Program-made: the position numbers and the translations under genes | Source: Pseudomonadota bacterium | GTDB taxonomy: Bacteria; Myxococcota_A; Polyangia; Polyangiales; Polyangiaceae | NCBI GenBank assembly: GCA_023418705.1 | Contig: JAEZYZ010000062.1 | Span: 17,875 to 81,874, forward strand | Direction of reading: 5' to 3' | Length of the DNA stretch: 64,000 nt | The notes under the pieces: model-generated | What the model was told of the DNA's origin: nothing | Database searches by the model: none | Seen by the model: only the letters and a program-made list of their open reading frames with translations | Shown: positions 306 to 55,886 of the stretch, one piece after another | Position numbering within the stretch: the stretch's first letter is position 1 | How the letters are laid out: every line of letters begins with the position of its first letter

Positions 306-1238
306 TCAGCGGGAGGTCGCCGCTCGCGACTCCGGCGCCACCAGTACGGAGAAAAACTCTCTCAAGCGGCGGGTGTACTCGCCGGTGGCCACTTTAGCGT
401 AGTCGCCATGGGCGGCCGACGGAAAAACGAGCAGCTGCTTCGGCTCTTCGGCAGCCGCGTAGAGGCGCTGCACCATGCTCGGCAGCACGACCTCGTCGCG
501 TGCTCCGCCGATGACCAGCACGGGGCGCGGAGCGAGCTTCGAAACCACGCGCACCGCCTTGTCCTCGTCGGGCTCGTAGCCGAGGAGCCGCTGCGACCAC
601 AGGGCGGGCAGCACGCTGAATGGCCCCCACCGCCGATACTCCCAGCGCGTTTGTTCGGTGACGTCGGCGGGGGTCCCGGCCAGCACGACGGCGCGCAGCC
701 GGGGGTCGACCGCGGCGACCTGGGCTACGATGTAGCCGCCCATGGAGAAGCCGAAGACGCCGATGCGCTCCGCGTCGACGTCGGGTCGACGTGCGATCCA
801 ATCGGTGGCGGCCCGGAGCGCCTCGCGCTCGGCGGCGCCCCATTCCACGACGCCGTCACTGTGACCGTGGCCGGGCCAATCGAACGCGAGCACCCCGTAG
901 CCGGCGTCCGCCAAGATACGGATTTCGGGGCCGAGCTCGCTGCGATCGCCCATCGAGCCGTGCGTGAGGATCACCGCGGCGCCGTTGTTCGAGGGCGCGA
1001 ACCACCCGCTGAGCTCGGAGCCGTTCGCGACCGGGATGCGGACGTCCTCGAGCCGCGAGACGCCCACGCTCGAACGATCGTGCTGCAGCGTGCCCCGGGG
1101 CGGGTGCAGGTAGGAACGTTCCTTGAGGTAGATGCGAACCCCCATCAACAGCCACACCCCGAGCGGCGCCGCCCCCAGCGTCAGCAGGGCGCCGCAGACC
1201 CAGCGCCTGCGGCTGAAGAGCTTCGAGAGGGCCTTCAA
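306..1238 (-). CDS. membrane-anchored alpha/beta-fold hydrolase
   Basis: 310-aa ORF with a basic N-terminus followed by a hydrophobic helix (WVCGALLTLGAAPLGVWLLMGV). HG motif (ILTHGSMGD), nucleophile elbow GFSMGG and a C-terminal His (SAAHGDY). The TTG start overlaps the TGA stop of the upstream megasynthase (TTGA). Confidence 0.8.
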   Translation of the reverse strand: MKALSKLFSRRRWVCGALLTLGAAPLGVWLLMGVRIYLKERSYLHPPRGTLQHDRSSVGVSRLEDVRIPVANGSELSGWFAPSNNGAAVILTHGSMGDRSELGPEIRILADAGYGVLAFDWPGHGHSDGVVEWGAAEREALRAATDWIARRPDVDAERIGVFGFSMGGYIVAQVAAVDPRLRAVVLAGTPADVTEQTRWEYRRWGPFSVLPALWSQRLLGYEPDEDKAVRVVSKLAPRPVLVIGGARDEVVLPSMVQRLYAAAEEPKQLLVFPSAAHGDYAKVATGEYTRRLREFFSVLVAPESRAATSR

Positions 1239-18500: not shown

Positions 18501-20137
18501 AGCACGTGCAGGCACGCGGGACCGTCGAGCGGCTCGGCAGGAGGGTTGAGCTGTCGTAGCAGCGCCGCTTCCTCCTCGCTGACGAGTGGCACAGCCGAGA
18601 GCGGGACATTGGCCGTCGGCGCGTGCTCGAGGAAGACCCCGAGGCGCGCGGCGATCGAGCGGAGGCGCGCCTCCGAGCAGCGCGCCACGAGGCGCAGCCG
18701 CCCAGCTTTCGTGTTCACGCAGAGCAAGAGATCCCGTGTCGCGTCCGGCGGCTCGGGATCGACATCGACGAGCACCGCGACAGCGAGCGGCGCCGGGGCT
18801 TGTCCGCTCCTCAGCGCCAGGTCCACCGGATGCGGCTCGGTTTGGCTGAGCCGCAGCCGCTCGCGTTCGATGCTCTCGACGGCGGCTCCGACGCCGAGGG
18901 TCGGCGATAGGCTCAGGCGCAGCGGGGACGCGCCAGCGAGCAAGCGGGGCGCCATGGCTTGCTTGTCGCGCAGGGCCGGATCGGCATAGGCGACGTCGAG
19001 CTCGAAGCACTGGCAATAGCGCGCCAAAAAGGCGAGGCCGAAGGCCGCGGCGTGGGACGCCGGTACGCCCGGCGCAAGGGGCACCTCGATCGAACGTTCG
19101 GGGGCGGCCGGGTCTGGGTTGAGGTCGAGCGACGGATTGTTCGGCGCCCGCAAGATCGCGGCAAAGCGCGGCTCGTGCCGGGCGGCGGCCTTGGCGGCCG
19201 CTTCGAAGCGCGCTTTGAGCTCCGCGTCGACGAGCGGGAGCTTGCTGCCCACCTCGATGCCGGCGGCGCGCAACGCCTCGGCCGTGAGCGGCTGCCCGTC
19301 GGTCAGGCGCAGCCCGGAGAGCCGAACGCCGGTGGTCGAGCTGGCGACCACCAGCGCGTCGCCGTCCACCTGGAGGACGGTCCCCGGCGTCCCCGTCGAA
19401 GCTTCGGGATGGGCTCGGGACACGAGCAGGACGCCGCTGGGGGTGAGCAGCTTGGCGCACCCGACGGGGTTTGGATACGTGCCAAAGTCGAGCGCGCGCA
19501 CGACGCGGACGATCGCGTCGGCCGCTTCGTCGAAGCAGAGCACGCCGGCGGCCGGCGGTCGCTCGGAGGCCCCGAAATAGGTGCGCTGCGAAGGGTCCTG
19601 AGCCTTCGGCTCCAGCGTGCCGGAGACGATGGCCTCGGTGAGGTCCCGGAAGCTCTCGATCCCGGCCGTGAAGCATTTGGCGTTGAGGCTGAACGCGGTC
19701 TCGTCCGCGGCGACCTCGAACGACCGCTGGATGAAAATGCGCCCGGCGTCCGCCTGCGCCGTCATCTCGTGCCAGGTCACGGCGTGCGTCGGCTCGCCGT
19801 TGAGCAGCGCCCAGACCGGGGCGTTGAGGCCGGCATACCGGGGCAGCGGCCCGTCGTGGAAGTTCACCGCGAAGCGCCGCGCCCGCTCGAGCAGCTCCGC
19901 CGGCAGGATGCGGAAGTTGACCACCGAGAACAGCACATCGAAGGGCTCCGCCGCGGCCGCGCTCGTCAGCTCGCCGGGATCGATGACCCGCAGCCGTTGC
20001 TCGCGAGCCCACTCGACGACGGTGGGTTCGCGGCTGGCGATGCCGCGGATCCGCTGTCCGGCGTGCTGCCAGATCTCGACCGCCTGAATCAGCAGCGTGG
20101 CTTCACCGACGAACCAGGCTTCAAGCGGGCTCTGCAT
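15584..20137 (-). CDS. NRPS: formyltransferase-like / condensation C-lobe only / A domain (Gly-type code) split by luciferase-like monooxygenase / PCP
   Basis: 1517 aa. ATG at 20137 overlaps the PKS stop by 17 nt. Domains by motif:
- Fmt-like domain (aa 1-300, nt ~19238-20137) with [13 protein letters not shown] and ...ADAGRI, so the N/H/D triad is present.
- C-lobe-like segment without HHxxxDG (aa ~320-530, nt ~18548-19180).
- A-domain motifs A1-A4 ([35 protein letters not shown]; nt ~17873-18520).
- LLM insert of ~355 aa ([10 protein letters not shown]...[12 protein letters not shown]...[19 protein letters not shown]; nt ~16778-17845).
- A5-A10 ([38 protein letters not shown]; nt ~15938-16765).
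- PCP (FFDLGGHS; nt ~15683-15904).
There is no C-terminal release domain. Confidence 0.95.
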
Positions 20138-23100
20138 GGGATGACCTCGATACGGGCGGCAAGGGTCCGGGCGCCTCTTCGAGAGCGCGCTTCAGGTGCG
20201 CCGTCAGCACGCTCACGTTTGGCTCCAGGATCAGGCTATCGTGGGTGCCGGGGACCTCGACGATCTCGAGCCCCGGCAAGAGGCCGTCCCAACCGAGGGT
20301 CGGCCCGACATGTTGAAACACCTCCGCGACGCGGTCGGCGCGGAACAGGATCACGCGACCTTCGTAGCGGCGCGCGCGGTAGCGCGCCGAGGCTTCGTAG
20401 AAGCTGCGCGTCAGCTGCAGCTCTCGGAGCTCCAGCGGCAGCGGCTGCTGCTGGCTGAGGTAGAAGCGGAGCTTGAGCTCGGCGGACAGCTCGTTCAGGT
20501 GACGGGACCACTTGGCCCGGCTGCGCTCGGACAGGTACGCGGTGCCGCCCTGGAGCAGCTTGGTGATCCGATCGGCGAGGGCGGGCTTGCGCGGGCGGGT
20601 CGAGGGCTCGAACGTGTCGAACAGCACGACGAGCCGCACCTGCTTGCCCTGGGCGATCAGCTGGTGGGCCATCTCGAGCGCCACCACCCCGCCCCCGGAA
20701 TAGCCGCCGAGCACGTACGGTCCCGAGTGGTCGATTTGCGATAGCTGCTCGACGTACAAACGGCCCATGTCCTCGATGGTCTGAAGGGGCGTCTCCCCGT
20801 TCACGCCCAGCGCCTGCAGCCCGTAAAACGCCTGATTCGAGGGGAGCCGCCGCGCCAGGTCGTAGAAGTTCAACACGTTGCCGCCCGCGCCGTGGACGCA
20901 GATGAACGGCGGTCGTTCCGGGCTGCCCTTTTGGATCAAGACCAGGGGGTTGAAGCCGTCGTGGGCTGCGGGACGCCCGTTCGGGCGCTCCGGCGCGGCG
21001 CGGCCGTTCTTCGGGACCTCGAGGGTCTTGCCGAGCCGCTCGCGCAGGATGTCGGCGCACTGCTCGATGGTCGGCGCCTGGAAGAGCACGGCGAGCGAGA
21101 GATCGACCCCGTGCGTCTTCTTGATCCGCGAAAATAGCCTCACCGCGATCAGGGAATGCCCGCCGAGCTCGAAGAAGTTGTCGTGAATGCCGACGCTGGA
21201 GACGCCGAGCAAGGCGCACCACATCTCCGCCAGGCTCCGCTCGATCTCGTCGCGCGGGGCATCCTCCCGCTGCGCTTCCGCCGTCGGGGCGCTGGGGCGC
21301 GCCTCGACGCGCGCTGGCTTCAGATCGGCGGCGAGGGTCTCGAGCGGAACGGGCGTGGCGACGACTTCGCCGCGCCAGCCGCTTCGCAGCACGCGATCGA
21401 CGACCCGGAGGCCCTCTTCCAGGGTGAGCCCCTCCTCGAACCAGCGCTCGAGCGGCGAGGGGGCCGTGGCGGGGGCAGCTGGGGCGGTGAGCGCGCGGGC
21501 GGGCATGCTCTTGGTCACATAGCCGTCGATGGTGGCGACGACCTTCCCGTCGAGGTCCGCCAGCTGCAGGTCGAAGACGGCGACGCCGTCGGACCCGGGC
21601 GCCGATCTCAGCCGCACGTGGCTCATCAGCTCGGCGGGCAGCGGGGCGCGGATCGTCAAGCGCTCGTACGAGAGGGGGATCCGCAGCAGGTCTGCCGCGT
21701 CGCCCGTGTCCGCCAGCGAGAAGGCGAACCCCGACGCCATGTCGAGCAGGCCGGGGTGCAGCGCGTAGTTCGCCTGCTCCCCGCGGAGCTCCTCGGGCAG
21801 ACGCAAGAGGGCGAGCGCCTCGTCCGTCCCGAAGTGCATCTCGCGGATCACCTGCCAGTGCCGACCGAGGGCCAGGTGGCGGTCCTGAGGCAGCTCCTGG
21901 CGCTCCTCGAAACGCTGGCTTCGGTGGCCGCAGCGGCGGCGGATGGCGTCGAGATCGAGCGGCGCCGGCGCCGGCGCCTGGTCGACGCGCAGGCTCCCTC
22001 GAGCGTGCTCGACCGCGCTCGGCTCGCCCTTCCCACGGCTCGAGATGGTCACGGTCACCGTCGCCGGCTCGGAGCGCACGTCGGTCACCACCTCCAGCTG
22101 CCGCTCGGCGCCGTCCGGGATCGACAGCGGGCGCGCAAACAGCAGATCGCTGAGCTCGAGCGCGGCGGCGTCGGGCAAACCGAGCGCCCGGGCGCCCGCA
22201 GCGCGAACGATCTCCACGAAGCCGGTGCCGGGCAGCACGGCCGTGCCACCCCGCACGCGGTGCTGATCCATCACCCACAGCGCGCGCGGGGAGTAGGTAG
22301 CCCGAAACCCGAGCTGGTCCATGCGCTCGCGGTGCAGGCGGCCTAGCAGCGGGTGTCCCACGACGTCACCTTCGGCGGGCGCCTCGACGCGCGAGAGCGC
22401 GCGCGCCGCCATCCCCACCTCCTTCCAGACGCCGAAGCCCAGGCTGAGCACGCGCGTCCCGGCTTCGGAGTAGCGCCGGGCGAGCTCCCGTCCGAGCGCG
22501 TTGAGGTAGCTGTTGGCGGCGGCGTAGTCGATCTGCCCGGGAGGGCCGAGCACCGCGCTCGTCGAAGAGATGAGCAGCAGCAGCGCGGGCGGATCTTGGG
22601 CGAGCGCCTCGACCAGGTGGCGGCTGGCGTCGAGCTTCGGGGCGAGGACAGCGCGGGCCGCGGCGCGCGTCTTCACCGCGAGGGGCGCGTCGTCGAGGAC
22701 GCCGGCCGCCTGCACGACGACGTCGACGCGACCGAAGCGGGCCTTCACCCGGTCGAGCAGGGCATCGGTCTCCGCCCGGGAGGCGAGGTCGCCACTCTCG
22801 ACGACCACCTCATGGCCCGCTGCGCTGAGCTCGAGCAACAGCTTGAGCTTGCCGGCGAGCGGATCGCTCGAGCCGAGCTCCTCGAGCACCTCGGCCCAGT
22901 GTTCTCGCTCCGGAAACGGATGGCGTGTGACAAGGACCAGGCGAGCGTTCAGCGTGTCCGCGAAGTGCTTGGCCAAGGTGCTGCCGATGCCGCCGAGGCC
23001 GCCAGCGATCAGGACGATGGGCTCGGGGGGCAGGGGAGCGCCGGCGTCCGAAGCCGGGGCGTGGGTGAAGATCTGGGCGAGGCGCCGTCCGTCGCGTTCG

Positions 23101-26100
23101 GTCGTGACCTCGTGAACCTCCGACGCCGCGGCCTCGAGCAGGACGGAGCGCGCGGTGGCCTCGCTGTCTTGCAGGGCCGGCACCTCGAACAGGACGGCCC
23201 TGACCTCCGGCAGCTCCTTGGGGATGACCCGCACCGGGCCCTCCGCCAGCGCCGCCAGGGCGCCCGAGCTGCCGCCGCCGTCGTCGAAGACCCCCGAGCA
23301 AGCCACCAGCAGGCGCGTGTCGGGATGCAGGCTCTCGCGGGCGAGCGCTTGAGCCAGGTGCAAGAGCGAATAAAAACAGCGGTCGAGCGCGGGCTCGAGG
23401 GGAGCTTCGGGGGATCGCAGCTCGGGGGACAGGCAGAGCGTGTGCACGATCCGGGCGGGGACTCCGGCGTCGCTGACGACGTGCTGAAGCAGCGTCTCGT
23501 AGTCTTCCGGATGGGCGAGCCTCAGCTGATACCGTCCCCGTTCGAGCCGCTCGGTCGTGGCTCCGGGCGTCACGATCGCGGGTTTTATACCGCGCGCGCG
23601 CAGCTCGAGCTCGAGCGCCCGGCAGAGCGGCCCTTCGTCGGCGAACAGCAGCCACACCTCGGCCGGATCGAAGGTCGTGGCTCCGCGATCCGCTTCGGAG
23701 AAGCTCGGCTGGAAAAACCATTTGGAGGCGTCGGGCTCCCGCCGAGCGGAGGGCGCGTCCTCGGCGGCGCCAAAGTAGCCCTTGCCCGGCTCGATCCAGT
23801 AGGGCTCGTGCTCGAAGGGCGTCGCCGGCAGCGGAACGATCGTCCGCGGGGTGTTCAGCAAGCGCTCGAAATCGACGCTCCCACCGTGGGCTGCGATCCG
23901 GCCGACGCTCGTGACCAGGGTCGTCACATCCGATGAGCGATCCTTCGCGTGCGGAGAGACCGGGACCACCGGGCGCTGTTGGTTCGCGCGCAGGGTGGAG
24001 GTCAGGGTCTGGCCTGGACCGACCTCGACGAAGATCGCGTCCGGGTGACGCTCGAGCACACCGGCGACCCCGGCGGCGAAGCGAACGGTCTCTCTCAGGT
24101 GACGGACCAGGTAGCGCGCGTCGATCTCTGCCGCTTCGGGGAAACGGCCGCTCAAGTTGGACACGAAGGGGATGCGCGGCGCGTGAAAGGTCACGCCGGT
24201 CAGCGCCGCCGCGAACTCATCGAGGATCGGATCGAGCAGCGGCGAGTGGGCGGGCACGTCGATGCGCAGGCGCGTGGGGTGCACGTCCTGGGCGAGCAGA
24301 TCGCGCTCCAGGCGCTCGAGCGCCTCCGAGCTGCCGGAGACGACGCAGAGGTCGGGGGCGTTGATGGCGGCGATCGACAGCTCGCCCTCGAGCAAGGGGG
24401 CGAGCTGTTCACTCGGCATCGGCACCGACAGCATGCCGCCGCGCCGAACCTTCTCGAACAGGCGACCCCGGCAGCAGACGACGGCCAGCGCTGCGCCCAG
24501 CTCCAGGACCCCGGAAAGGTGGAGCGCGGCGTACTCCCCCAGCGAGTGGCCGATCAAGGCCGCCGGGCGCACTCCCCAGTGATCGAGCAGGCGCGCGTAG
24601 GCGATCTCGATCGAGAACAGGGCCGGCAGCGCCAGGGAGGGACGCTCGAGCTCCCGCGCCGCGGCCGATACGTCCCCATCCACGAAGAGCAGGGGACGAA
24701 GATCGATGTTTTCTTGCCGCTCGAGGACGCTCAAGCATTCGTCGAGCGCGTCGCGAAAAACGGCTTCGCTCTCGTAGACCTCGCGGGCCATGTTGGGGTA
24801 TTGCGCGCCCCCGCCCGGAAACACGAACACCACGCTAGCGGCTTCACCTGGGGCGTGCACATCGAAGACGCGCGCCGTGTCCGGCCGGGCCAAGAGCTCA
24901 GCGGCCTCCGACGAGCTCTTGGCGGCGAGCACCCGCCGGTGAGCGAAGCGGCGCCGGCCGCGGAGCAAGGTCGAGCTCACCTCGGACAGCACCAGGTCCG
25001 GATGCTCGGCGAGGTGCGCGCTCAGGCGCGCGGCGTACTCGTCGAGGGACCCCTGGCTGCGCGCCGCGAGCAACAAAAGCTGCGGCTTGTCACTCGCGGC
25101 GGGTGACCGCCGCCGCGGCGCTTCTTCGAGGATGGCGTGCGCGTTGGTGCCGCCGACGCCGAGCGAGCTGACGCCGGCGCGTCGTGGCCCGGTGCCCTTC
25201 GGCCACGGCGCCCGCTCGTGCACCACGTAGAACGGGCTCGCCGCGAAGTCGATCTGCGGGTTGGGTCGCTCGAAATGCAGGGTCGGGGCGAGCTGCTCGT
25301 GCTCCAGCATTTGAGCGACCTTGATCAAGCTCGCGACGCCCGCCGCGGTGTCCAGGTGGCCGATGTTCGACTTGACCGACCCGACGCCGCAGTAGCCGCG
25401 GTCGTCGTTCGTGCGGGAGAAGGCGCGCGTGAGCGCCGTCAGCTCGATGGGATCGCCCACCGGCGTCCCGGTGCCGTGGCATTCGACGTAGGAAATGTCG
25501 CGGGCAGTTAGCCCCGCCACCTGGAGCGCTTCGACCACGCACTCCGCCTGACCATCGACCGATGGTGCCAGGTAGCCGATCTTGCGGCTGCCGTCGTTGT
25601 TGACCGACGTGCCCTTGATGAGCGCGTGGATGTAGTCACCGTCGGCGATGGCGTCCGCCAGGCGCTTCAGGACGACGACCCCCGCACCGGATCCGAACAC
25701 GGTTCCTTTGGAGCGCTCTTCGAAGGGGCGGCAGTGGCCGTCGGGCGAGAGGATTTCACCCTCTTCGTAGAAGTAGCCGCGGCCGTGGGGCAGCTCGAGC
25801 GTCACGCCCCCGGCCAGCGCCACGCCGCATTCTCCGGAGAGCAGGCTCTGGCAGGCCATGTGAACGGCCACCAGCGAGGTCGAGCAGGCGGTCTGGACGT
25901 TGATGGACGGCCCCTTCAGATCGAGGCAGTAGGAGACCCGGGTGGCCAGAAAGTCCTTGTCGTTGCCGGTGTGCCGGACGAGGAACAACCCCATCGACTG
26001 CATGAGGTCGGGGTTGGTGAACAGGTGGTAGGGCAGGTAGGCGTTCATGCCAGAGCCGGCGAACAAGCCGATCGGGATCGCCGCGGCCTCGGGCAGGATG

Positions 26101-26444
26101 CCGGCGCTCTCGAGCGCCTCCCAGCACACCTCCAGGAAATGGCGGTGCTGCGGATCCAGCACGCTGGCTTCGCGCGGAGAGAAGCCGAAAAACTTGGGAT
26201 CGAACAGCGAGAGGCCGTCGATCGGCGCCGTCGCCCTCACGTAGCGAGGATCGGTGAGGTGCGCGTCGGGCACGCCGGCGCGGCGCAGCGCCTCGGCGCT
26301 CGGGAACTGGATGCTCTCCACTCCGTCGCGCAGGTTCGCCCAGAAGCGGAACACGTCCGGCGCTCCTGGGAACCGAGCTGCCATGCCCACGATGGCGATG
26401 TCCGTACTCTGTAGTTGATCGTCGTCGACGTCGTATGCGCCCAT
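20121..26444 (-). CDS. type I PKS: KS / AT / KR / DH / PCP-type carrier / thioesterase
   Basis: 2107 aa, ATG at 26444. Domains by motif:
- KS (TACSTS, ECHGTGT, SNIGH; nt ~25125-26405).
- AT (GHSLGE, with VPAHS where HAFH/YASH normally sits; nt ~23865-24833).
- KR ([13 protein letters not shown] in [16 protein letters not shown]; nt ~22395-23732).
- DH ([23 protein letters not shown]; nt ~21501-22361).
- Carrier (FFELGGHS; nt ~21030-21251).
- TE (GYSGGG, PGTHDS; nt ~20175-20957). Confidence 0.95.
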
Positions 26445-48046: not shown

Positions 48047-49453
48047 TCACTCAGCGGCGGCCGAGGGTCGCGCCAGCCCGTGCTCTCTCACCTGCGCGGC
48101 GACTTCTCCCATCAGCTGCTCGATATCCTCCATTGCGTTGTGCAGCGAGACGGTGAAGCGTAGGCCTGCGTGGTTGCGTGGTACGGCCGGGAACACGCTG
48201 GGGCACACGTAAAGATGCCGCTCTCGCAACGCCTGGACGACACGGAACGCGAGCTGGGAGCGCCCGCAGCGCACGAAGAAGATGGGCGTGCGGGCCCAGG
48301 TCGTCAGGGGGACGTGAAGCTCGCGCGCGAGCTCGAGCACCCGATCGATGCGGTCGGCGAGGCGCCGCTGAAGCAGAGGGAGCTCCGGGGTCTGGTGCAG
48401 CTTCGCTGAGGCCAGGGCGGCGGCGAGCATCGGCGGTTGGATGGGGCCCGAGAACAACATCGGGCCGCCGCAGCGGCGGACCCGATCGCGGAGCCGTGCG
48501 TCGGGGAACACGAGCGCCCCTCCCGCCGCCGAGAAGCACTTGTTCAGCGACAGGGCCACGACGGCTCGGCTCGTGTCGGCGAGCTGCTCGAGGGCTCGAC
48601 CGCGACCGTGCACGCCGCACCAGGAGGTCGCGTGCGCGTCATCGACATACAGGTAGAGCTGAGGGTGCTGCTCCAGCAAGGCCGAGAGCTCCTCGAAGGG
48701 AGCGAAATCTCCATGCATCGAATACAGCCCGTCGAGCACGTACCAGATCCGCCGGTGCGAGCGGGAGAGTTCGACGAGCTTGGCAGACAGGGCCGAGATC
48801 TTGCTGTGCCGGACCGGCAGCACGTGGGCCTGGTGAAGCAGGCCCGCCGCCGTGTGCAGGCTCGCGTGGGCGAACTGATCGATGACGACGGCATCACCGG
48901 GCTCGACCAGCACCGGCAGGGCCGCGATGTGCCCGAGCGTCGTCGAGGCTGAGACGACGACGGGCCTGTCGGTGATGTGCTCTAGCTCGCTCTCCAGCTC
49001 CGGGTAGAGCGAGGACGTCAAGTAGGCGCGGGAGAACGAGAACTGGGTGCCGTAGCGCCGCACGGCGTCGCTGACGGCGGCTTTCAGCTCGGGCCGGAGC
49101 TCGAGGCCGAGATAGCTGCAGCCGCCGAAGTTCAGCAGCCGCTGCGCGCCGATCTCCACATGCCTTCCCGTATATGGAGATGTCGAAATGCTCTGCCGGA
49201 TGACGCCAGCCTGCTCCGCTTCGAGCACGCTCTGCTCGATCGGATCCACGAAAGGAGCCGGATCGAGGCGACGAGCGCTCGAGTCGATCTTGGGTGTGCG
49301 CCGGGGGGGTTCGGCCGCGCCTTTCGGGGCGCCGGCGGAGGGGCTTCCGTTCAACATGCAGACCCCTTCGACCGCTCCCGGGTCGAAGTTTAGGCGTCTT
49401 GGGTCACTTGGATCCCCAGGTATGACAGCGATCATGACCTGAGGGCTGGGCAC
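48047..49453 (-). CDS. PLP-dependent alpha-oxoamine synthase family enzyme (AONS/SPT/KBL-like)
   Basis: LLNFGGCSYLGLE, GTQFSFSRAY, SASTTLGHIAALP, GDAVVIDQFAHASL, YVDDAHATSW, Schiff-base Lys in SLNKCFSAAGG. The start is uncertain (several in-frame Met). There are up to ~90 aa of extension before the conserved core. Confidence 0.85.
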   Translation of the reverse strand: MPSPQVMIAVIPGDPSDPRRLNFDPGAVEGVCMLNGSPSAGAPKGAAEPPRRTPKIDSSARRLDPAPFVDPIEQSVLEAEQAGVIRQSISTSPYTGRHVEIGAQRLLNFGGCSYLGLELRPELKAAVSDAVRRYGTQFSFSRAYLTSSLYPELESELEHITDRPVVVSASTTLGHIAALPVLVEPGDAVVIDQFAHASLHTAAGLLHQAHVLPVRHSKISALSAKLVELSRSHRRIWYVLDGLYSMHGDFAPFEELSALLEQHPQLYLYVDDAHATSWCGVHGRGRALEQLADTSRAVVALSLNKCFSAAGGALVFPDARLRDRVRRCGGPMLFSGPIQPPMLAAALASAKLHQTPELPLLQRRLADRIDRVLELARELHVPLTTWARTPIFFVRCGRSQLAFRVVQALRERHLYVCPSVFPAVPRNHAGLRFTVSLHNAMEDIEQLMGEVAAQVREHGLARPSAAAE

Positions 49454-49609: not shown

Positions 49610-50113
49610 ATGAAAACATCCCATGTGCTGTACGGCGACGATGGGGTCATCGTCGCTGAAGTTGGCGCCATCTGCGTCGTGATCTGGCGCAAGGACGTAG
49701 TCGAGCACCGGTTTCGCGAGCAGGCCACCGGTCTCGCGCAAGTGGTGCGCAACCATCGAGGAGGCGACGCGGCGTTCCTCTGCATCATCGAGTCCACGTG
49801 CAGACCGCCGGACGACCAGCTGCGGCGGGCGTCGATCGACATGGTCGCCGCCCACGACGGGGATCTGAGCTGCGTCGCTTGCGTCGTCGAAGGCTCGGGG
49901 TTCCGAGCGGCGGTGGGCCGCAGCGTGCTCTCGGGCATGTCGCTCATCTTCTCCGGACGCAAAGCGCCGGTCTCGGTGTTCGCGAGCGTGCCGTCCGCCG
50001 TCGACTGGATGAGCGAGCGTTGCCGCGTGTCGCCCGCCTTGCCCGCGACCGTGGAGCGGTTGCGGTTGCTGTTCGAGTCCAACGCAACGCAGCCATCCAA
50101 GGCGTTGCGCTGA
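49610..50113 (+). CDS. hypothetical protein, SpoIIAA/STAS-like pattern
   Basis: MKTSHVLYGDDGVIVAEVGAICVVIWRKDV...AFLCIIESTCRPPDDQLRRA...VACVVEGSGFRAAVGRSVLSGMSLIF...VFASVPSAVDWM. ATG at 49610. Confidence 0.5.
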   Translation: MKTSHVLYGDDGVIVAEVGAICVVIWRKDVVEHRFREQATGLAQVVRNHRGGDAAFLCIIESTCRPPDDQLRRASIDMVAAHDGDLSCVACVVEGSGFRAAVGRSVLSGMSLIFSGRKAPVSVFASVPSAVDWMSERCRVSPALPATVERLRLLFESNATQPSKALR

Positions 50114-50133
50114 CGTGCACCCGGAGGATCCTC

Positions 50134-51315
50134 ATGAATCGTCGTCATCTTCTCGTCCTCGCCCTCGCCCTGACCGGATGCGGAGCAGATCCGCAGGTGG
50201 AGGGAGCGGCGTCCGAAGAGCTCCGGGCCGCCTCCGCGGAGCTCATCGAGATCGGCTCCCGCTCAATCAGCTATGATTATGCCCGCCTGGATCTGTTGCC
50301 GGCCGGGGTCGCGGGTGGAAAGAAGGTCGTGTTCGTCGGCGATCCGCTCGGAGGACGGGTCGTGGCGCTCGATCGCTTCACCTCCGCGCGCATCGGCGAG
50401 CTGCCGCCGCCGCCGGACGGGTTTCTGCTGCCGTTCATCGTCCACGCGATCGGTCCGAACCGCGTCGCGGTCCTGGACGCCGGGGGCCTACCGAGCCCGG
50501 ATCCGTTCGTTCCGGCGAACCCCACGATCTACGAGTACGAGTACGGGTGTGGCGCCGGCGCTGGGCTCGCGGCCTCCCTGGTGAAGACCATCAGCTTCTC
50601 GTCGGCCTTCATCGGCTTCGCCGAGGACTTCGTGAAGCTCGCCGACGGTCGCTACGTGCTCTCCGATGCGGTCCTGGGCGGCCTGTGGATAGCGACCCCC
50701 GACGGCGACATCGAGCCCGGGATCGTGCCGGCGAGCCTCGAGCCGGAGGACCAAATTCCCGAGCTCGCCGTTTGCCCGGAGATGCCGATGATCGATGTTG
50801 GCGGGGTGCCGTTTCTGTTCTCCGGCGCCACCCTGCCGGGCGCCTCGCCGCTCGGCTTGGCCGAGCGCGCGGGCCTGCTGTACTTCTATTCGCCCTGCGC
50901 CGAGGGGTTGTACGCCGTCCCCCTCGCCGCGCTGGCGGACACGCGGGCGCCGCACGAGCGGGCGGCGGACATCCGCCTGGTCGCCGCCAAGCCTGCAGAT
51001 GTGCCCGTCGAGCAGCTGCTCGGGCTCACCTTCAACCCGTTCTCACCTTGGGACCGCTGGCTCTATGCCGCAGATTCCCTACAGCTGCGCATCATCCGTA
51101 TCGACGTAGCCACAGGTAGGCGGCAAGTCGTCGCGGACCACCCGGATCTCTTCAACTTCCCGTCGTCGCTAGCGTTCTTGCCGCCCGTGCTCGGCGTGAG
51201 CCCGCTCGCGGTCGTCTCGAACCAGCAGCATCGCCTGACCCTCACGAACGCCGCCATCAGCGAGGATCTGGCGGCGCCGCCGTTCATCATCGCGAAGGTC
51301 TTCGCGCTGCCGTGA
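50134..51315 (+). CDS. lipoprotein, possibly beta-propeller-like, unknown function
   Basis: GGAGGA 5 nt upstream of ATG 50134. MNRRHLLVLALALTGCGA lipobox. Repeated strand-like blocks (VVFVGDPLGGRVVALD, RVAVLDAGG, YVLSDAVLGGLWIATPDG, LLYFYSPCAEGLYAV, WLYAADSLQLRIIRID). Confidence 0.6.
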   Translation: MNRRHLLVLALALTGCGADPQVEGAASEELRAASAELIEIGSRSISYDYARLDLLPAGVAGGKKVVFVGDPLGGRVVALDRFTSARIGELPPPPDGFLLPFIVHAIGPNRVAVLDAGGLPSPDPFVPANPTIYEYEYGCGAGAGLAASLVKTISFSSAFIGFAEDFVKLADGRYVLSDAVLGGLWIATPDGDIEPGIVPASLEPEDQIPELAVCPEMPMIDVGGVPFLFSGATLPGASPLGLAERAGLLYFYSPCAEGLYAVPLAALADTRAPHERAADIRLVAAKPADVPVEQLLGLTFNPFSPWDRWLYAADSLQLRIIRIDVATGRRQVVADHPDLFNFPSSLAFLPPVLGVSPLAVVSNQQHRLTLTNAAISEDLAAPPFIIAKVFALP

Positions 51316-51381: not shown

Positions 51382-51888
51382 TCAGCGCCAGCTCGGCTTC
51401 TTGGTGTCGATCAGCGGCCAGGTTTGGTTGATGGCCTCTTCGACCTGCCGACGCTCGCTGCGTGTCAGGCCGAGGTGCTCGTAGGCCGCCTCCACTTCCG
51501 AGCTCTGAAAGGCCCGATGTCCCTGGTTGAACAGCGCGACGCCCGCCGAGATGAAGCGCATCTTGAGGCTGTCGGAGACGACGGCGACGGGGACGGGCCC
51601 CCCGGAGAGAGCCTGCTCGAGCTTCTTGCGTTGCCTGCCGTCCGGACCCCCGCCCTCGGTGACCACCAGGACGCGGACGCGCCGGTGCTGTTCGCGGATT
51701 TCCTTCAGCATTCGGAGGCACTCTTGCCACTCGAGATCGGTTGGAGAGTCGTTGTTTTGTACGAGAATGAGAACGTCACCGACACTTCGCGTGACAAGAC
51801 GCTTACCTTCGTTGGCACTATTGCGGAAGCTCACGACATTTTCCCTGATTTGCGCGCCGCCCGCGCCCTTCGCGGACCAGCTTGGCAT
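51382..51888 (-). CDS. hypothetical protein, STAS-like pattern (distant paralog style of 49610-50113)
   Basis: 168 aa. VGDVLILVQNNDSPTDLEWQECLRMLKEI...VRVLVVTEGGGPDGRQRKKLEQAL...VAVVSDSLKMRFISAGVALFN...FQSSEVEAAYEHL. Confidence 0.5.
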   Translation of the reverse strand: MPSWSAKGAGGAQIRENVVSFRNSANEGKRLVTRSVGDVLILVQNNDSPTDLEWQECLRMLKEIREQHRRVRVLVVTEGGGPDGRQRKKLEQALSGGPVPVAVVSDSLKMRFISAGVALFNQGHRAFQSSEVEAAYEHLGLTRSERRQVEEAINQTWPLIDTKKPSWR

Positions 51889-52067
51889 TGATACCCTAGA
51901 AGGGCGCCCATGATACAGTCAAATGCGCTGACAACGGTCGTGATGCCGGCTGCCGCAGCGTTTCCGATGGGCGAACGCCCTACAGCGGGCCACCTACGCG
52001 CACTGGCCATCACCATGGGGTCGCACGGTGGACAAGCCCGCACTGGTCGAGCGCTCCACTCGGGTGA

Positions 52068-52234
52068 CTAGAGCGACAAACGGATTGCAGCGCAAACCGT
52101 TTGTCGCGAAAGGAGACCATCCAGCGCACCGGGCCGTGAGCGCGCAGCGGGAATCTCGATGCGTCGGGGCCCTCACCCAAGAGGGGTCGCCGATTCACCG
52201 GAATTTCGGTCTGGCAGACGGAGCGGCGCTCTAC
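52068..52234 (+). mobile_element. CTAG-bounded hairpin element, copy C (full length, diverged)
   Basis: CTAGAGCGACAAACGGaTTGCagcGCAAaCCGTTTGTCGCGAAAGGAGACCATCCAG, then about 110 nt collinear with copy A (GCACCGGGCCGTGAGC, TCGGGGCCCTCACC, CTGGCAGACGGAGCGGCGCTCTAC). The last 4 nt overlap the stop codon of the di-iron enzyme gene. Confidence 0.55.
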
Positions 52235-52983
52235 TCGGCAGGCGGCGCCGCGGCTGCAGGACCCGCGACCTTGCCGGGTCGGTCAGCCGGGAACCCTTTC
52301 TTCGAGACCGCTAGCTCGAAGGTTTCGTCGACGAAGCCCTGGAAGCGGGCGAAAACGTCGTCGACGATCGCGCAGAGCCGCTGGCACTTCGCATCGTCGA
52401 GCGCCACTCGCAGCAGGGAGCTGTGAACGTCGTCCTGTTCGACGGTGTGCTGCCGCTCCGTGTCGAGGTGATGCCCACCGAAGTAGATGAGCGAGCGTCC
52501 GTTGTCCAGCTTGACCTTGTTCCCGGTGGGAACCGACGCCTCGAGTCCAACGCGGCCGGTTGCTTCGATCGCCTGGATCATGACGAGCTTTTCCAGCGAG
52601 TCCATCCCGGCGGTCATCTTGCAGATCTCGTAGGCCAGGCGGCGCGTGTTGATCGTCGAGTCGCCCCAGATGAAGCGGAGGGTATCGGTGAGCCGGAGCG
52701 ACGGATCCAGGTCGAGCTCGGTGAGGTCCTTCAAGTACCACTTCCAGTGGCTGCCCTCCTCCGAGAGGTGTGTGTTCGCCAGCACCTCATACTCGTCCTT
52801 AGGTTCATCGGTCGTCAGGAAGAAGTGATACAGGTCGGCGAACGTCATCACGAAGTGCGCGATGTGCGGGATGAACTGGAGCCGATCGCGAGGGGACAAG
52901 CTCTCGTCTTTCAGGTAGACGAAGAGCGGTCGCTGGGTAAACTCTCGGGATTTGTCCTGAATGTGATCGAAGACACGTTTCAT
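52231..52983 (-). CDS. heme-oxygenase-like fold di-iron (HDO / iron-containing redox enzyme family) protein
   Basis: ATG at 52983 preceded by GAGGAG. 250 aa, all-helical pattern. Candidate ligand motifs are FIPHIAHF, NTHLSEEGSHWKWYLKDL (ExxH), VMIQAIEATG and GGHHLDTERQH (ExxH). The track start at 53136 adds an unlikely leader. GC is visibly lower than in the flanks. Confidence 0.6.
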   Translation of the reverse strand: MKRVFDHIQDKSREFTQRPLFVYLKDESLSPRDRLQFIPHIAHFVMTFADLYHFFLTTDEPKDEYEVLANTHLSEEGSHWKWYLKDLTELDLDPSLRLTDTLRFIWGDSTINTRRLAYEICKMTAGMDSLEKLVMIQAIEATGRVGLEASVPTGNKVKLDNGRSLIYFGGHHLDTERQHTVEQDDVHSSLLRVALDDAKCQRLCAIVDDVFARFQGFVDETFELAVSKKGFPADRPGKVAGPAAAAPPAE

Positions 52984-53002
52984 CTGGATCTCCTCTTGCG
53001 GG

Positions 53003-54106
53003 TCAGGGACCTCGACGGCGGTACTTGCCCGACGCTGGTCGGCTTGGAGGGCTTGTTTCAGCACTGGTGTCGTAGAGCTGTGGGGCCAAATAGACGGTGA
53101 GGCGCGTCCCGACCCCCTTCGCACGAACCGAGCCATACGTGATGAGGCCGCGGTCTTGCGACAGGCTGCGGGTGCTGATCGCCGCGACCGCTCGCCTCAG
53201 ACGCTCCGCGTTCATGTCGTCGAGCAGGCCGGAGATGCGCTGGAGCGCCTCGTCGTCGCTTCGGACGTGGCACCGGATCGGAACGTGAACCGTGAGCTCT
53301 GGCGCCTTCGAGCCCTTGCGAAACGAGAAGCAGCTCAGGATTGGACGTGAAGCGGCCGCACGGCGCGGCCCCATCAGGTGATCGGCCGAGGCGAGAGCCT
53401 GTTCGAGCGAGCGCGTCGACGACGCAGGCGCGATCGCTCGAAGGTGGTCGATATCGTCCTGCCCAGGAACGTAGAGCTTGACCCGCGCCGACTCCGTGGT
53501 TTCCAGATCGAGCGCGAAATAGCTCGTGGAGTCCTTTATGAAAGGATGCGCCCCCTCGATGCCCAGGCGGCGCATGGCCTCGTGCAGCAGCTCCGGAGCG
53601 CGCTCTCGACCGTGCACTTGGGGGTTCAAATACACTTTGAACAAGGGCTTCGGATCGCGCAGCACGGCAGCGACCCAGAATAGGAATCGAACCGGCTCGT
53701 TGGACTTCGGTGCGAAGAGATCTCGAACGGCGTCGAAGCGATCGACGTCCACCCCACGATGATTGCGGAGACGCTGAATGAGACGAAGCCCGGCTTCCCA
53801 GCTCGACGTCGGGGTAATGGGCATGATCTGCGGCTCCAAGAGCATTCGTAGCTCTGGGCGGCCGTCATCGAAGGCGATCGAGAACTCGAAGGGGCTGCCG
53901 TCGTCGCAGATGTCGTTCGCCCACATGGGTTCTCCGCCGGTTGGCCAGAGGCCCCACGGATCACTCAGCAGGTCGAAGACGTCCTGCGCCTGGATCAGCG
54001 TGGTGTCGCTGTGGTCGATAGCTTCGCAGAGGGCGGTGAGACGTAGCAGCGCGGCGTCCCGCAATGGCGCGGAGCCGGAGCGTTTTGTCGAGGGAGGCGA
54101 CGTCAT
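53003..54106 (-). CDS. ABBA-fold aromatic prenyltransferase, DMATS (tryptophan dimethylallyltransferase) type
   Basis: 367 aa. WANDICDDGSPFEFSIAFDDGRPELRMLLEP (the DMATS DDGxPxExS pattern). Repeated basic-x-aromatic strands: LFKVYLNP, RVKLYVPG, ELTVHVP, RLTVYLAP. The size is typical of bacterial indole prenyltransferases. Confidence 0.7.
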   Translation of the reverse strand: MTSPPSTKRSGSAPLRDAALLRLTALCEAIDHSDTTLIQAQDVFDLLSDPWGLWPTGGEPMWANDICDDGSPFEFSIAFDDGRPELRMLLEPQIMPITPTSSWEAGLRLIQRLRNHRGVDVDRFDAVRDLFAPKSNEPVRFLFWVAAVLRDPKPLFKVYLNPQVHGRERAPELLHEAMRRLGIEGAHPFIKDSTSYFALDLETTESARVKLYVPGQDDIDHLRAIAPASSTRSLEQALASADHLMGPRRAAASRPILSCFSFRKGSKAPELTVHVPIRCHVRSDDEALQRISGLLDDMNAERLRRAVAAISTRSLSQDRGLITYGSVRAKGVGTRLTVYLAPQLYDTSAETSPPSRPASGKYRRRGP

Positions 54107-54332
54107 GAAAGCACCTCGGGTGACATACCTTGTGCGATGCCTGGTTTAGGAGCGCCCGATCGCGCCTTGCGCCTCAACGGCCGCACTCGAGGATTCTTAA
54201 GACGCAAAAGTACGAGGCCGCCTCATTGGCCCAGGGGCCAATGCTGCAGTCCGTACCACGCCGTGCTGCCACCGCTCATGGCCGGCGCGGTGCACGCCGG
54301 GACCGGGCGCGGCGACGCGCGTGACGACCGCT

Positions 54333-55784
54333 CTAAAAGATGTCCGGACCAGGCGTCAGGATGCAGGCGGGATCGTAGCGACGCTTCTGTCGAACGAACC
54401 AGGGGAACGTCTCGCCGTAGTGGCGGATCCAGTCGACCTTCGAGAACGGCGTCGAGCCGATCGGGTACCGGTAACCGCCCACGCTCCGCGCCTTTTCGTA
54501 CAGACGACGGTTGCGCTTGAGCATGCGGGCCTCGAAGGCTGGATCGGGACCGGGGGCCGGTGCGGAGGTGAGGATGTCGAACAGGAAGACCCATTCACCT
54601 CGGGGAACTCGGAACAGCGGACGGGCGTGTCCGTGCCGCTTGAAGGCAAACAAAAGGAGGAACCCCGTCATGCCGACGTCATCTGGCTGCAAAGAAGGTA
54701 TCACCTCGCCGACATACCGTTCGACCGCCTTCTCCGGCAGAAAGACATCGAACCAGGGGTGCCTAACATTGTCCCACAGCCCGATACTTCTAAAGAAATC
54801 GATCGCAACGTCGACGGTGAGGGCATACTGGAGGAACGGTTGATCTTGGATGCTCAACAATGAAGCATCGAAGTTGAGACCGCGCAGCAGGTGGTTGTCG
54901 TGGGGTGTCGCGCCTGGGCCGTGAAACTTGACGGCGTTGAGCTGATAAAGCCACCCACCTGCCCCATCTGGAAACCAGAGGGTAAACAGGTCGTCGAACT
55001 CGCCGCGTGCGAGCAGCTTGCGCAGATCGCGGAAGAACGTGGCGTTGTCGACGTAGTGCAGCAGGTAGGTGCGCGCCTGCTCCGGCGCTGGCACCAGGTC
55101 GACCTCGGCGCGGGTGATGATCCCGCATTGACCGAGACCCGCGAGCGCCGCTTCGAAGAGATCGCGGTGGCGATGCACGGAGCACTCGACCAGGTCCCCT
55201 TTTCCGGTGACGACCTCCAGGCGGCGCACGTGATCGACCTGGACTCCGCGCCGGTTGCCCGATGAGACTCCGCCGACGGACAGCGTGCCGCCGATGGAGA
55301 GACCGAGATAGCCAGTTAGTACTGGCGGCATGAGGCCGTGCTGCAGCGTCTCTTCGAGCAGGCTATTCCAGCGCAGGCCAGCATCGACCTCGGCGGAGCG
55401 GTGGCCGATCTTGTGGATCTGGCCGAGGGGGGCCATCTCGATCATGAGCCCGCCGCGCACCAGCGACTGGCCGTACGTCGTGTGACCCTGACCGCGGGCG
55501 GAGACCTTGATGCGAAACTTCTTGGCGAAGCGCACCATCTTGACGATGTCTTCGACCGAGCCGGGGCGCAGCAGGGCGAGCGGGGTCTCATGAACGGTGT
55601 TGCCCACGTCGCTCGAGTAGGCGGCGAGCACGGCCGGGTCGAAGATGAGCTCCCCGTCCAGCCGGGGGACGGAGGAGTGGCCGTGGGCAGCCGCGGCTTC
55701 GGAGACCCAGCGCCCCGTCACCGGATTGAAACCAACCACCGTGGCGGCCGCAAGGCCGGAGATCACTTGCCGTCGACTGATCAT
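54333..55784 (-). CDS. Tat-exported FAD-linked oxidase of the cytokinin dehydrogenase (CKX) type
   Basis: 483 aa. Twin-arginine signal MISRRQVISGLAAATVVG. PCMH FAD domain with ARGQGHTTYGQS (His at the covalent-FAD position). LSIGGTLSVGGVS. CKX-type C-terminus RYDPACILTPGPDIF. Confidence 0.8.
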   Translation of the reverse strand: MISRRQVISGLAAATVVGFNPVTGRWVSEAAAAHGHSSVPRLDGELIFDPAVLAAYSSDVGNTVHETPLALLRPGSVEDIVKMVRFAKKFRIKVSARGQGHTTYGQSLVRGGLMIEMAPLGQIHKIGHRSAEVDAGLRWNSLLEETLQHGLMPPVLTGYLGLSIGGTLSVGGVSSGNRRGVQVDHVRRLEVVTGKGDLVECSVHRHRDLFEAALAGLGQCGIITRAEVDLVPAPEQARTYLLHYVDNATFFRDLRKLLARGEFDDLFTLWFPDGAGGWLYQLNAVKFHGPGATPHDNHLLRGLNFDASLLSIQDQPFLQYALTVDVAIDFFRSIGLWDNVRHPWFDVFLPEKAVERYVGEVIPSLQPDDVGMTGFLLLFAFKRHGHARPLFRVPRGEWVFLFDILTSAPAPGPDPAFEARMLKRNRRLYEKARSVGGYRYPIGSTPFSKVDWIRHYGETFPWFVRQKRRYDPACILTPGPDIF

Positions 55785-55886
55785 AGTTAGCGCTCCCGTG
55801 TGACTTGCTCGAACAATCCCCAGCCCAACCGGGGATTATCCAGGAAGGAAGCGCGCCCGTCAATCCGGCGCATCACAGATTGTTCG

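Follow-up and report, generated by a model that had tools for sequence, protein, structure and literature searches.

Gene content of the locus

Here, we report that four minus-strand genes at positions 51382–55784 of a 64,000-nucleotide (nt) stretch of contig JAEZYZ010000062.1 (the whole of this stretch was analyzed and is called the window) probably form a biosynthetic cassette for a small prenylated indole metabolite in uncultured Polyangiaceae-like soil myxobacteria. Gene 1 (54333–55784) encodes a flavoprotein of 483 amino acids (aa) with the fold of cytokinin oxidase/dehydrogenase (CKX), predicted to be exported by the twin-arginine translocation (Tat) route and recognized by PF01565, PF09265, and the plant CKX structures. 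Gene 2 (53003–54106) encodes a DMATS-type aromatic prenyltransferase of 367 aa, recognized by PF11991 and the PriB/6-DMATS structures. Gene 3 (52231–52983) encodes a heme-oxygenase-like di-iron oxidase (HDO) of 250 aa that belongs with AetD and SktA by its match to AetD, and gene 4 (51382–51888), here called d168, encodes an accessory protein of 168 aa with a predicted SpoIIAA/STAS-like fold, recognized by its orthologs in other loci and by AlphaFold2 (AF2) and Foldseek. An earlier reading of the same DNA, made from the letters alone and referred to here as the original prediction, had claimed genes 1 to 3 as a cassette; the three open reading frames (ORFs) are present where it placed them, and the fourth conserved gene, directly downstream, was missed. 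It had also noted that gene 3 begins 19 nt past gene 2, which is correct; a Shine-Dalgarno sequence, AGAGGAG, lies in this interval (52990–52996, minus strand, direct reading), 6 nt before the ATG of gene 3, and the short spacing suggests that genes 2 and 3 are a tight translational unit. We found no names for the four window proteins in any source examined.

The prenyltransferase

The DMATS assignment of gene 2 is borne out by PF11991 (56.8 bits, with a cut-off of 25). The more narrowly drawn score of TIGR03429 is 101.6 bits, under its cut-off of 163.85, and gene 2 is thus a divergent member of the DMATS group. Among PDB sequences it aligns over its full length to PriB, a tryptophan (Trp) C6 prenyltransferase (E 1e-41), and to 6-DMATS (E 1e-39 and 2e-30). 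In DMATS enzymes, the catalytic glutamate binds the indole NH and a ladder of arginine, lysine, and tyrosine residues binds the diphosphate. Both are intact in gene 2: the DDGSPFEFS pattern picked out in the original prediction holds the invariant catalytic glutamate, its PFEFS part aligning with PVEFS in PriB and 6-DMATS, and the R/K-x-Y strands belong to a ladder that does not vary in 18 orthologs of gene 2, in which the invariant residues are E74, R87, K157/Y159, R208/K210/Y212, and Y339. Gene 2 is predicted to prenylate L-tryptophan on the benzene ring, the nearest solved relatives (Trp C6 prenyltransferases, E 1e-41 to 2e-30) being too distant for assigning the ring position.

Some DMATS proteins of other loci (L006:4292–6082, L011, L012, L016, L017, and L024:11270–13060) carry a C-terminal extension of ~230 aa. 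Pfam gives no match to this extension, which faintly and co-linearly resembles the N-terminal half of the AetD-like fold (hhalign probability 11%) and, on that resemblance, may be a degenerate HO-like domain.

The di-iron oxidase

The call of gene 3 as a heme-oxygenase-like di-iron enzyme can be made more precise. Gene 3 is a homolog of AetD (phmmer against PDB sequences, E 5.5e-38, residues 1–220), which is its only match among those sequences. BLASTP aligns the two at 31% identity and 53% positives with zero gaps over 220 aa, so that AetD residue numbers carry straight over to gene 3. The iron ligands of AetD are D76, H79, E140, H172, E176, and H179, a 3-His/3-carboxylate set (PMC10654658), and all six positions are kept in gene 3 as E76, H79, E140, H172, E176, and H179; the two ExxH motifs that had been noticed are E76..H79 and E176..H179. 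Five of the ligand positions are invariant in 27 aligned HDO sequences, and every one of these has E or D at position 76. In AetD, F48 on auxiliary helix 2, a hydrophobic residue and not a fourth carboxylate, keeps Fe1 open for the amino-acid group of the substrate, which is held by Y167 (amino-acid/carboxylate anchor) and F44 (stacking) (PMC11611611, PMC10654658, PMC11869266). F44, F48, and Y167 are invariant in the same 27 sequences. By these residues gene 3 is a true member of the AetD family, and AetD, which the original prediction had named, was the correct comparator. PF14518 was, however, a poor choice as its check on this gene: this model does not match gene 3 even at E 10, and nothing else in Pfam or NCBIfam does so at that threshold. 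Given the direct match to AetD, the missing PF14518 match is a gap in model coverage and not evidence against HDO membership.

Two outcomes have been characterized in this family, the nitrile formed by AetD and the skatole, HCN, and CO2 formed by SktA; SktA frees HCN stoichiometrically, and in both pathways ring decoration precedes the HDO step (PMC11611611, PMC10654658, PMC11869266). The function of every other AetD homolog is unknown according to the SktA paper. Residues 139, 142, and 214 were proposed as discriminators between AetD and SktA in a 2026 review, and in gene 3 they are I, T, and F. A prediction of nitrile or skatole from T142 and F214 was considered and rejected because both residues are the default state of the family, AetD being the outlier.

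An exhaustive profile search places 746 representative clusters in the wider AetD-like family (E ≤1e-3). The close relatives of gene 3 are ~60 sequences at 48–67% identity, nearly all of them metagenomic. In a neighbor-joining tree, all DMATS-linked HDOs bar one fusion group together in a 33-tip clade to which AetD does not belong. The indole clamp of AetD, I146, is replaced by G, A, S, or T in 30 of the 33 members of this clade, as against 24 of 114 sequences outside it, and gene 3 has Gly; a small residue at this position is consistent with a bulkier, prenylated substrate. AetD-like proteins of ~500–540 aa with two tandem HDO domains were also seen (P0169, P0173, P0180, P0183, P0187, P0191, P0197, P0200, P0205, P0212, and P0235), several of which show an altered ligand pattern in the best-scoring copy.

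The CKX-fold flavoenzyme

Gene 1 had been called a CKX-like flavoenzyme, and it matches PF01565 (5.5e-25) and PF09265 (2.1e-20), both past the gathering cut-off. Plant CKX enzymes are its closest solved relatives (E 6e-60, PDB sequence search), and MaDA-3 is a remote match in the same database. The twin-arginine signal claimed at the N terminus, SRRQVISGLAAATVVG, is real, and its motif is kept in 11 of 13 orthologs; in MISRRQVISGLAAATVVGF, encoded at ~55686–55784, the twin-arginine motif is followed by a hydrophobic stretch. A Tat motif was called in 85 of 119 homologs. Such conservation is consistent with the export of a pre-folded flavoprotein, and the gene 1 product is likely, by prediction, a Tat-exported periplasmic protein. 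Directly after the Tat hydrophobic region, a motif GF[DN]P..R.W is strongly kept in nearly all CKX-like orthologs. Conservation of this kind beside a signal peptide is unusual, and the motif might serve to bind a chaperone or might belong to the mature fold.

The hallmarks of CKX are the histidine of GHS, which carries the covalent flavin adenine dinucleotide (FAD), the active-site Asp169, PHPWLN, and HFG (PMC4574047, a study of a Nostoc homolog). Asp169 polarizes the substrate amine (PMC4574047, PMC10610038), and the Phe of the CKX motif is crucial to activity (PMC4574047). In gene 1 the GHTTYGQS segment aligns with the GHS motif, as had been thought; the equivalent of ZmCKX1 H105 stands in a GHT, the histidine is invariant across 13 orthologs, and GH[ST] is found in at least 105 of 119 homologs. 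The C-terminal segment YDPACILTPGPDIF likewise aligns with the C terminus of CKX. Asp169 (WTDYL in CKX) is replaced by Gly (LTGYL) in gene 1; Gly stands there in 11 of 13 orthologs, with Asn and Ser in the remaining two, and in at least 101 of 119 close homologs. HYG for HFG and HPWFD for PHPWLN are both the consensus of the gene 1 clade. The substrate-binding Glu381 of CKX aligns with I328 of gene 1, a conserved acidic residue, D329, being one position off in a region where the alignment is uncertain.

Close relatives of gene 1 far outnumber those of the HDO: over 120 clusters share ≥57% identity with it, and 1,099 clusters match at E ≤1e-20. The Joint Genome Institute (JGI) calls this clade "cytokinin dehydrogenase", which, considering the residues above, is probably a misannotation.

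The fourth gene

Orthologs of gene 4 at 40–48% identity were found in 10 independent loci sampled by way of the HDO, at varying positions and on varying strands, and in four of the five loci sampled by way of the CKX-like gene. The gene never occurs without a CKX-like gene; among the 21 well-flanked metagenomic loci (defined below), 9 have it, with either kind of side-chain enzyme, HDO or tryptophanase. A smaller sample, in which 14 of 16 CKX-like genes had d168 with them, had suggested a near-constant association, which this larger, unbiased sample did not bear out. A Pfam search of gene 4 gave no match, and a word-indexed search gave six database relatives. The AF2 model, built from a 6-sequence alignment, has a mean confidence (pLDDT) of 73 (80–94 in the core), and Foldseek returned many STAS-family matches that agree with one another but are weak (best 2q3l, 1th8, and 1h4y at E ~1e-3, lowest E 1.3e-3; TM 0.44–0.62). 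The GC content of gene 4 is low, as in the rest of the block. Its product could serve as chaperone to the Tat substrate, carry a ligand, or act in regulation.

Linkage of the genes across genomes

Briefly, species-representative genomes were scanned with HDO-specific patterns, which gave 13 loci; seven further contigs were looked up, and tblastn and hidden Markov model searches were made. All 13 loci of the genome scan are in uncultured Myxococcota metagenome-assembled genomes (MAGs) of Polyangiaceae, Labilithrix, and others. The DMATS gene adjoins the HDO gene in all 22 of the HDO-sampled loci with enough sequence, in which gene order, strand, and flanking genes differ. The two are even fused into a single ORF in L019 (631 aa), P0090, P0161, P0094, and the metagenomic L084 and L088/L089. 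The fusion ORFs, ~600–630 aa long (L019:6801–8696), occur in several independent lineages, and P0161 falls outside the main DMATS-linked HDO clade. A true CKX-like gene is present in the closer HDO loci; L007 and L010 have other PF01565 proteins instead of a true CKX-like gene.

When homologs of the CKX-like gene were looked up in turn, DMATS was adjacent in five of five, and the third partner differed: an AetD-like HDO in L025, a weak PF14518 protein in L026, a true tryptophanase in L024 (NF009709, 556 bits, cut-off 285), and a fused FAD-monooxygenase/methyltransferase in L028. A metagenome scan with an alignment of the clade then gave 80 loci, which fall into 72 distinct groups at 95% nucleotide identity; 21 of these groups are well flanked (≥3 kb on each side). 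DMATS lies beside the CKX-like gene in 20 of these 21 de-duplicated loci. Of the 21, nine have an AetD-like HDO and eight a tryptophanase; four lack both enzymes, and no locus combines them (Fisher p = 0.0046). HDO and tryptophanase are found together in 0 of the 72 groups. The two enzymes thus appear, from this distribution, to be alternative ways of stripping the tryptophan side chain, and we call the loci that carry them the HDO and the tryptophanase flavor, respectively. No tryptophanase was found in the window.

The CKX-like gene is therefore the hub of a larger cluster family. The original prediction had taken genes 1 to 3 as a unit, and this stood in part: the trio does recur in the closer loci, but the constant pair is CKX-like gene plus DMATS, with the HDO as one of two side-chain enzymes. 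As a conserved unit the trio was rejected, since DMATS and HDO also occur alone (L020–L023).

Several further genes were noticed around these loci. A GntG-type aldolase dependent on pyridoxal phosphate (PLP) (NF041359, 291 bits) recurs beside the CKX-like gene (L019:8788–9771, minus strand; L037/L038, L044, L047, L050, L060, L073, and L085); in the metagenomic loci it is divergently transcribed, and it is present in 5 of the 21 well-flanked loci, mostly of the HDO flavor. The window has no such aldolase. A 587-aa aldehyde-dehydrogenase-like gene (62–70% identity between loci) lies beside the four-gene module in L017 (6043–7794), L018 (9538–11301), and L025 (2806–4563), and is absent from the window and from the scanned metagenomic loci. 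One Myxococcota MAG, GCA_049324695.1, has two related loci, L020, with the DMATS and AetD-like pair alone, and L028, with a CKX-like gene, DMATS, a 787-aa FAD-monooxygenase/O-methyltransferase fusion, and d168.

Proposed pathway

The original prediction proposed that the trio could make a prenylated, oxidatively remodeled indole or amino-acid metabolite and then process it in the periplasm, and this reading, with an indole derived from tryptophan, is supported by the adjacency and fusion of DMATS and HDO, the AetD membership of gene 3, and the conserved Tat signal. Starting from the family memberships, the intact catalytic residues, the export signal, the linkage, the fusions, and the exclusivity of HDO and tryptophanase, we infer substrates, step order, products, and a biological role as follows. 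In step 1, gene 2 would use dimethylallyl diphosphate to prenylate L-tryptophan on the indole benzene ring; the conversion of tryptophan to dimethylallyl-tryptophan is proposed since the catalytic glutamate and the diphosphate ladder are kept and the nearest characterized relatives prenylate free L-tryptophan. In step 2, the amino-acid end of the prenyl-tryptophan would bind at Fe1 of the gene 3 enzyme, which would take off the alanyl side chain by oxidation, giving either a prenyl-indole-3-carbonitrile (AetD-type) or a prenyl-3-methylindole with cyanide and CO2 (SktA-type). Truncation of the side chain is proposed because HDO and tryptophanase exclude each other in the same slot of the cluster and each takes the alanyl chain off a tryptophan.

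In step 3, the neutral, lipophilic prenyl-indole would reach the periplasm and be oxidized by the Tat-exported, covalent-FAD enzyme of gene 1. This flavoenzyme should act on the prenyl-indole, as that is the product shared by the HDO and the tryptophanase flavors. CKX acts on N6-isopentenyladenine by abstracting a hydride from the CH2 that adjoins the isoprenyl double bond. By analogy with this chemistry and with BBE-type prenyl oxidases, the favored reaction of gene 1 is an oxidation of the C-prenyl chain, in which hydride abstraction at C1' would lead to a 1,3-diene, an allylic alcohol, or a cyclized product. The loss of Asp169 would be explained if the substrate is a carbon one, with no amine that needs polarization. 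In step 4, the STAS-like protein of gene 4 would be an accessory to the flavoenzyme step, perhaps as a chaperone, carrier, or regulator.

Several points weigh against this scheme and should be kept in mind. Every carrier is an uncultured MAG, and the cluster family is known here from sequence alone. We found no known natural product that matches the predicted structure, in the literature or otherwise. In the remote loci L020–L023, DMATS and HDO genes occur but a CKX-like gene does not, which means that the flavoenzyme step is dispensable, and roughly half of the loci lack d168. The flavoenzyme could instead oxidize the indole ring or a C3 methyl, and the product of gene 3, nitrile or skatole plus HCN, is not readable from its residues. 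Step 1 need not precede step 2. Promiscuity is common among DMATS enzymes, and tryptophan without any modification is a substrate for AetD as well as for SktA (PMC11611611, PMC10654658, PMC11869266).

Alternative explanations

The order of the first two steps could be reversed, i.e., the HDO would turn free L-tryptophan into indole-3-carbonitrile or skatole (with HCN), and DMATS would prenylate the product. The turnover of non-brominated tryptophan by AetD and the co-purification of SktA with skatole formed from tryptophan speak for this order, and neither adjacency nor fusion fixes the sequence of the steps. However, PriB and 6-DMATS, the closest characterized relatives of gene 2, take L-tryptophan itself, ring decoration comes first in the AetD and SktA pathways, and the smaller residue at clamp 146 in the DMATS-linked HDOs is what one expects for a larger substrate; we consider the reversed order unlikely, if worth keeping in view. 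A different doubt concerns the site of flavin oxidation, which might be the C3 substituent or the pyrrole ring, e.g., 3-methylindole to alcohol or aldehyde via a methylene-indolenine in PCMH/VAO style. It is general knowledge that the PCMH/VAO superfamily (PF01565) classically oxidizes benzylic methyls para to a heteroatom, and SktA-type chemistry would provide the 3-methyl group. This is hard to reconcile with a CKX-like clade that goes equally with tryptophanase (8 of 21 loci), whose product has no C3 substituent, and with a fold that is specifically that of CKX, in which the substrate-binding domain recognizes an isoprenyl chain. Oxidation of the prenyl chain is accordingly preferred by us, and oxidation at C3 or the pyrrole ring is judged distinctly unlikely.

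Cyanide itself might be the functional product, with the HDO as an SktA-type cyanogenic lyase serving predation and the prenyl-indole as by-product or carrier. The carriers belong to a phylum generally known as predatory, and SktA-type release of HCN is stoichiometric; yet the obligate linkage and fusion to DMATS, and the interchange with tryptophanase, which makes no cyanide, indicate that the indole moiety is what matters, and a role for cyanide seems very improbable. The original prediction had offered the turnover of a cytokinin-like signal as its second reading. Gene 1 would then be a true periplasmic cytokinin dehydrogenase acting on cytokinins or N-prenyl amines, and its neighbors would be unrelated or make a cytokinin-like signal. 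The PF09265 match, the plant CKX enzymes as best solved relatives, and the JGI label "cytokinin dehydrogenase" on many homologs fit such a role. They are outweighed by the residues: Asp169 is Gly throughout the clade and HFG is HYG, whereas the sole functional bacterial CKX retains the Asp (PMC4574047). The Asp-less homolog from Nostoc, NoCKX1, is inactive, though it is without FAD as well (PMC4574047). The linkage is to DMATS, in 20 of 21 loci, and not to isopentenyltransferase or purine genes. With Asp169 missing clade-wide and the clade tied to a DMATS gene and not to cytokinin genes, it is unlikely that gene 1 is a cytokinin dehydrogenase at all, and turnover of cytokinins or N-prenyl amines as the purpose of the locus is barely credible.

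We would carry the prenyl-indole pathway one step further only tentatively, as a possibility that we would not expect to hold in full. The CKX-fold clade may be a new class of periplasmic flavoenzymes that dehydrogenate or cyclize indole C-prenyl groups, and the DMATS-linked HDOs may be the first branch of the AetD family specific for prenylated tryptophan, leading to prenyl-indole nitriles or to prenyl-skatoles plus cyanide, neither of them known as natural products. The tryptophanase flavor could be the long-missing route to indiacen-type dienyl-indoles, and the STAS-like protein possibly a dedicated partner of the flavoenzyme.

Comparison with known systems

Gene 3 resembles AetD, the nitrile synthase of aetokthonotoxin, and SktA, a skatole synthase, in family, in the 3-His/3-carboxylate ligands, in the open Fe1 site (F48), in the carboxylate anchor (Y167), and in being encoded beside an enzyme that decorates the benzene ring of tryptophan. 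The partner of AetD and SktA is a halogenase in a cyanobacterial host, whereas that of gene 3 is a prenyltransferase, sometimes fused to the HDO, in a myxobacterium; gene 3 also falls in a clade distinct from AetD, with a small residue at clamp 146.

For the first half of the pathway the closest parallels are in Streptomyces, where a bacterial DMATS likewise prenylates tryptophan and a second enzyme truncates or converts the alanyl chain. SCO7467/SCO7468, a 5-DMATS with a flavin monooxygenase, reportedly lead to 5-dimethylallylindole-3-acetonitrile. Indole-prenyltransferase/tryptophanase pairs and fusions of the IptA-TnaA type yield 6-dimethylallylindole, and a bifunctional Streptomyces enzyme of this kind has been described (bioRxiv 10.1101/2024.02.14.580309). 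The tryptophanase flavor (L024 and 8 of the 21 metagenomic loci) is a direct parallel to these DMATS/tryptophanase systems. The cassette differs from them in its di-iron HDO as side-chain enzyme, in the added Tat-exported CKX-fold oxidase and STAS-like protein, and in its Myxococcota host.

Gene 1 and NoCKX1 are both without the Asp, but gene 1 retains the flavinylation His, which NoCKX1 does not (PMC4574047). With ZmCKX1 and with FasE/RfCKX1 of Rhodococcus fascians, gene 1 shares PF01565 plus PF09265, a GHS-type His for 8-alpha-histidyl FAD, the HPW and C-terminal YDP..L.PG..IF motifs, and a presumed substrate that bears an isoprenyl group; it differs from CKX in the Gly at Asp169, in HYG and HPWFD, in the Tat signal, and in the genomic tie to a C-prenyltransferase. 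Oxidation of C-prenyl groups by BBE/VAO-type enzymes is reported for MaMO (mulberry, prenyl to diene), EasE (the diene step of ergot), and THCA synthase. Covalent flavoproteins of the superfamily of gene 1 can thus take a hydride from an aryl-prenyl benzylic CH2 to give a diene or cyclized product, although these enzymes are of the BBE-like and not the CKX-like subfamily and are eukaryotic.

Indiacens A and B are 4-(3-methylbuta-1,3-dienyl)indoles from Sandaracinus with no C3 substituent (PMC4660955, PMC9306752). Like the products predicted here, they are myxobacterial, prenylated on the benzene ring, and devoid of the alanyl chain, with a diene in the prenyl chain; unlike those expected of the HDO flavor in the window, they have no nitrile or methyl at C3. 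By analogy, indiacens are what the tryptophanase flavor together with a prenyl-dehydrogenating CKX-like enzyme is predicted to make. The indiacen literature examined describes no gene cluster, and the genome scan, made with HDO-specific patterns, gave no locus from Sandaracinus.

Intergenic elements, composition, and neighboring genes

A consensus scan gives a promoter-like site, TTGACG-17 nt-GATAAT (55835–55863, minus strand, 10/12 matches), that lies ~50 nt ahead of the start of gene 1. It is the sole match within 6.5 kb, where shuffled sequences average 0.7, and the assignment as a promoter is a weak one, by prediction only. The gap of 226 nt between gene 1 and gene 2 contains a stem-loop (54195–54260, minus strand), located by direct reading and folding energy. 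The hairpin CATTGGCC-4 nt-GGCCAATG that had been seen at 54224–54243 is exact on direct reading, and its 8 bp are the core of this longer stem-loop (dG −29.7 kcal/mol, z = −2.96, equaled by 1 of 200 shuffles). The T-tract that had been noted in the gap follows it but is weak (CTTTTG), and a scan gives weak terminator-like sites in the gap. The stem-loop could act in attenuation or termination, or it could mark a site of processing. An Rfam search of the cassette, stem-loop included, gave zero matches; in other loci every gap folds, but neither sequence nor structure is common to them.

The lower GC of the cassette is real but mild, far from the contrast of 50–62% with 75% that had been counted by hand. 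The cassette genes have a GC of 0.615–0.643 and a GC at third codon positions (GC3) of 0.76–0.83, the means for the genes of the whole window being 0.677 ± 0.028 and 0.84 ± 0.06. At 0.637, the block 51382–55784 is the lowest 4.4-kb stretch in the window (0.679 ± 0.017 over all such stretches). We regard this as weak evidence for a horizontal origin.

The neighbors in the window (a polysaccharide deacetylase, GlmS, a BioF-like PLP enzyme, and a 505-aa ORF) were considered as members of the cassette and excluded because they are not conserved beside it elsewhere. Just downstream of the cassette lie the PLP acyltransferase of the BioF/Kbl family (48047–49453, minus strand, PRK07505, 241 bits) and the 505-aa ORF (49798–51315, plus strand), which has no family match. 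Farther away, there are three large minus-strand genes of hybrid polyketide synthase/nonribosomal peptide synthetase (PKS/NRPS) type, which encode A/FAAL-ACP-KS-AT domains with a class-III aminotransferase (1235–8719); a formyltransferase with an adenylation domain that is broken by a luciferase-like monooxygenase, and then a PCP (15584–20137); and KS-AT-KR-DH-ACP-TE (20121–26444). These PKS/NRPS genes (1235–26444) are a separate biosynthetic cluster, 26–50 kb off and unlinked to the cassette in other genomes.

Novelty and significance

The original prediction knew of no described pathway with this combination, and our literature search found none either: full-text literature gave no AetD with a prenyltransferase, no DMAT with an HDO, no prenylated indole-3-carbonitrile, and no indole prenyltransferase with a CKX-type enzyme. 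Each component is of a known family, the logic parallels the Streptomyces DMATS/tryptophanase systems, and the cassette overturns no principle. AetD-type di-iron enzymes were discovered recently, and the two characterized members are both cyanobacterial and act on halogenated tryptophan; each carries out, as a single enzyme, a chemically remarkable conversion, to a nitrile or to skatole plus cyanide. What the window adds is a separate, myxobacterial AetD-type branch in which the oxidase is tied to a prenyltransferase, in some cases by fusion, and is interchangeable with a tryptophanase. The cluster family concerned is abundant: a single metagenome scan yielded 72 distinct loci, and the CKX-like homologs exceed 1,000. 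The cassette is thus a cloneable system for asking what sets the product outcome in AetD-type enzymes. It also offers a plausible first non-cytokinin function for the bacterial "cytokinin oxidase" homologs that annotation pipelines now mislabel, and an example of a natural product whose last step likely takes place outside the cytoplasm. For the myxobacteria, it provides a testable genetic hypothesis for the origin of prenyl-indole antibiotics such as the indiacens.

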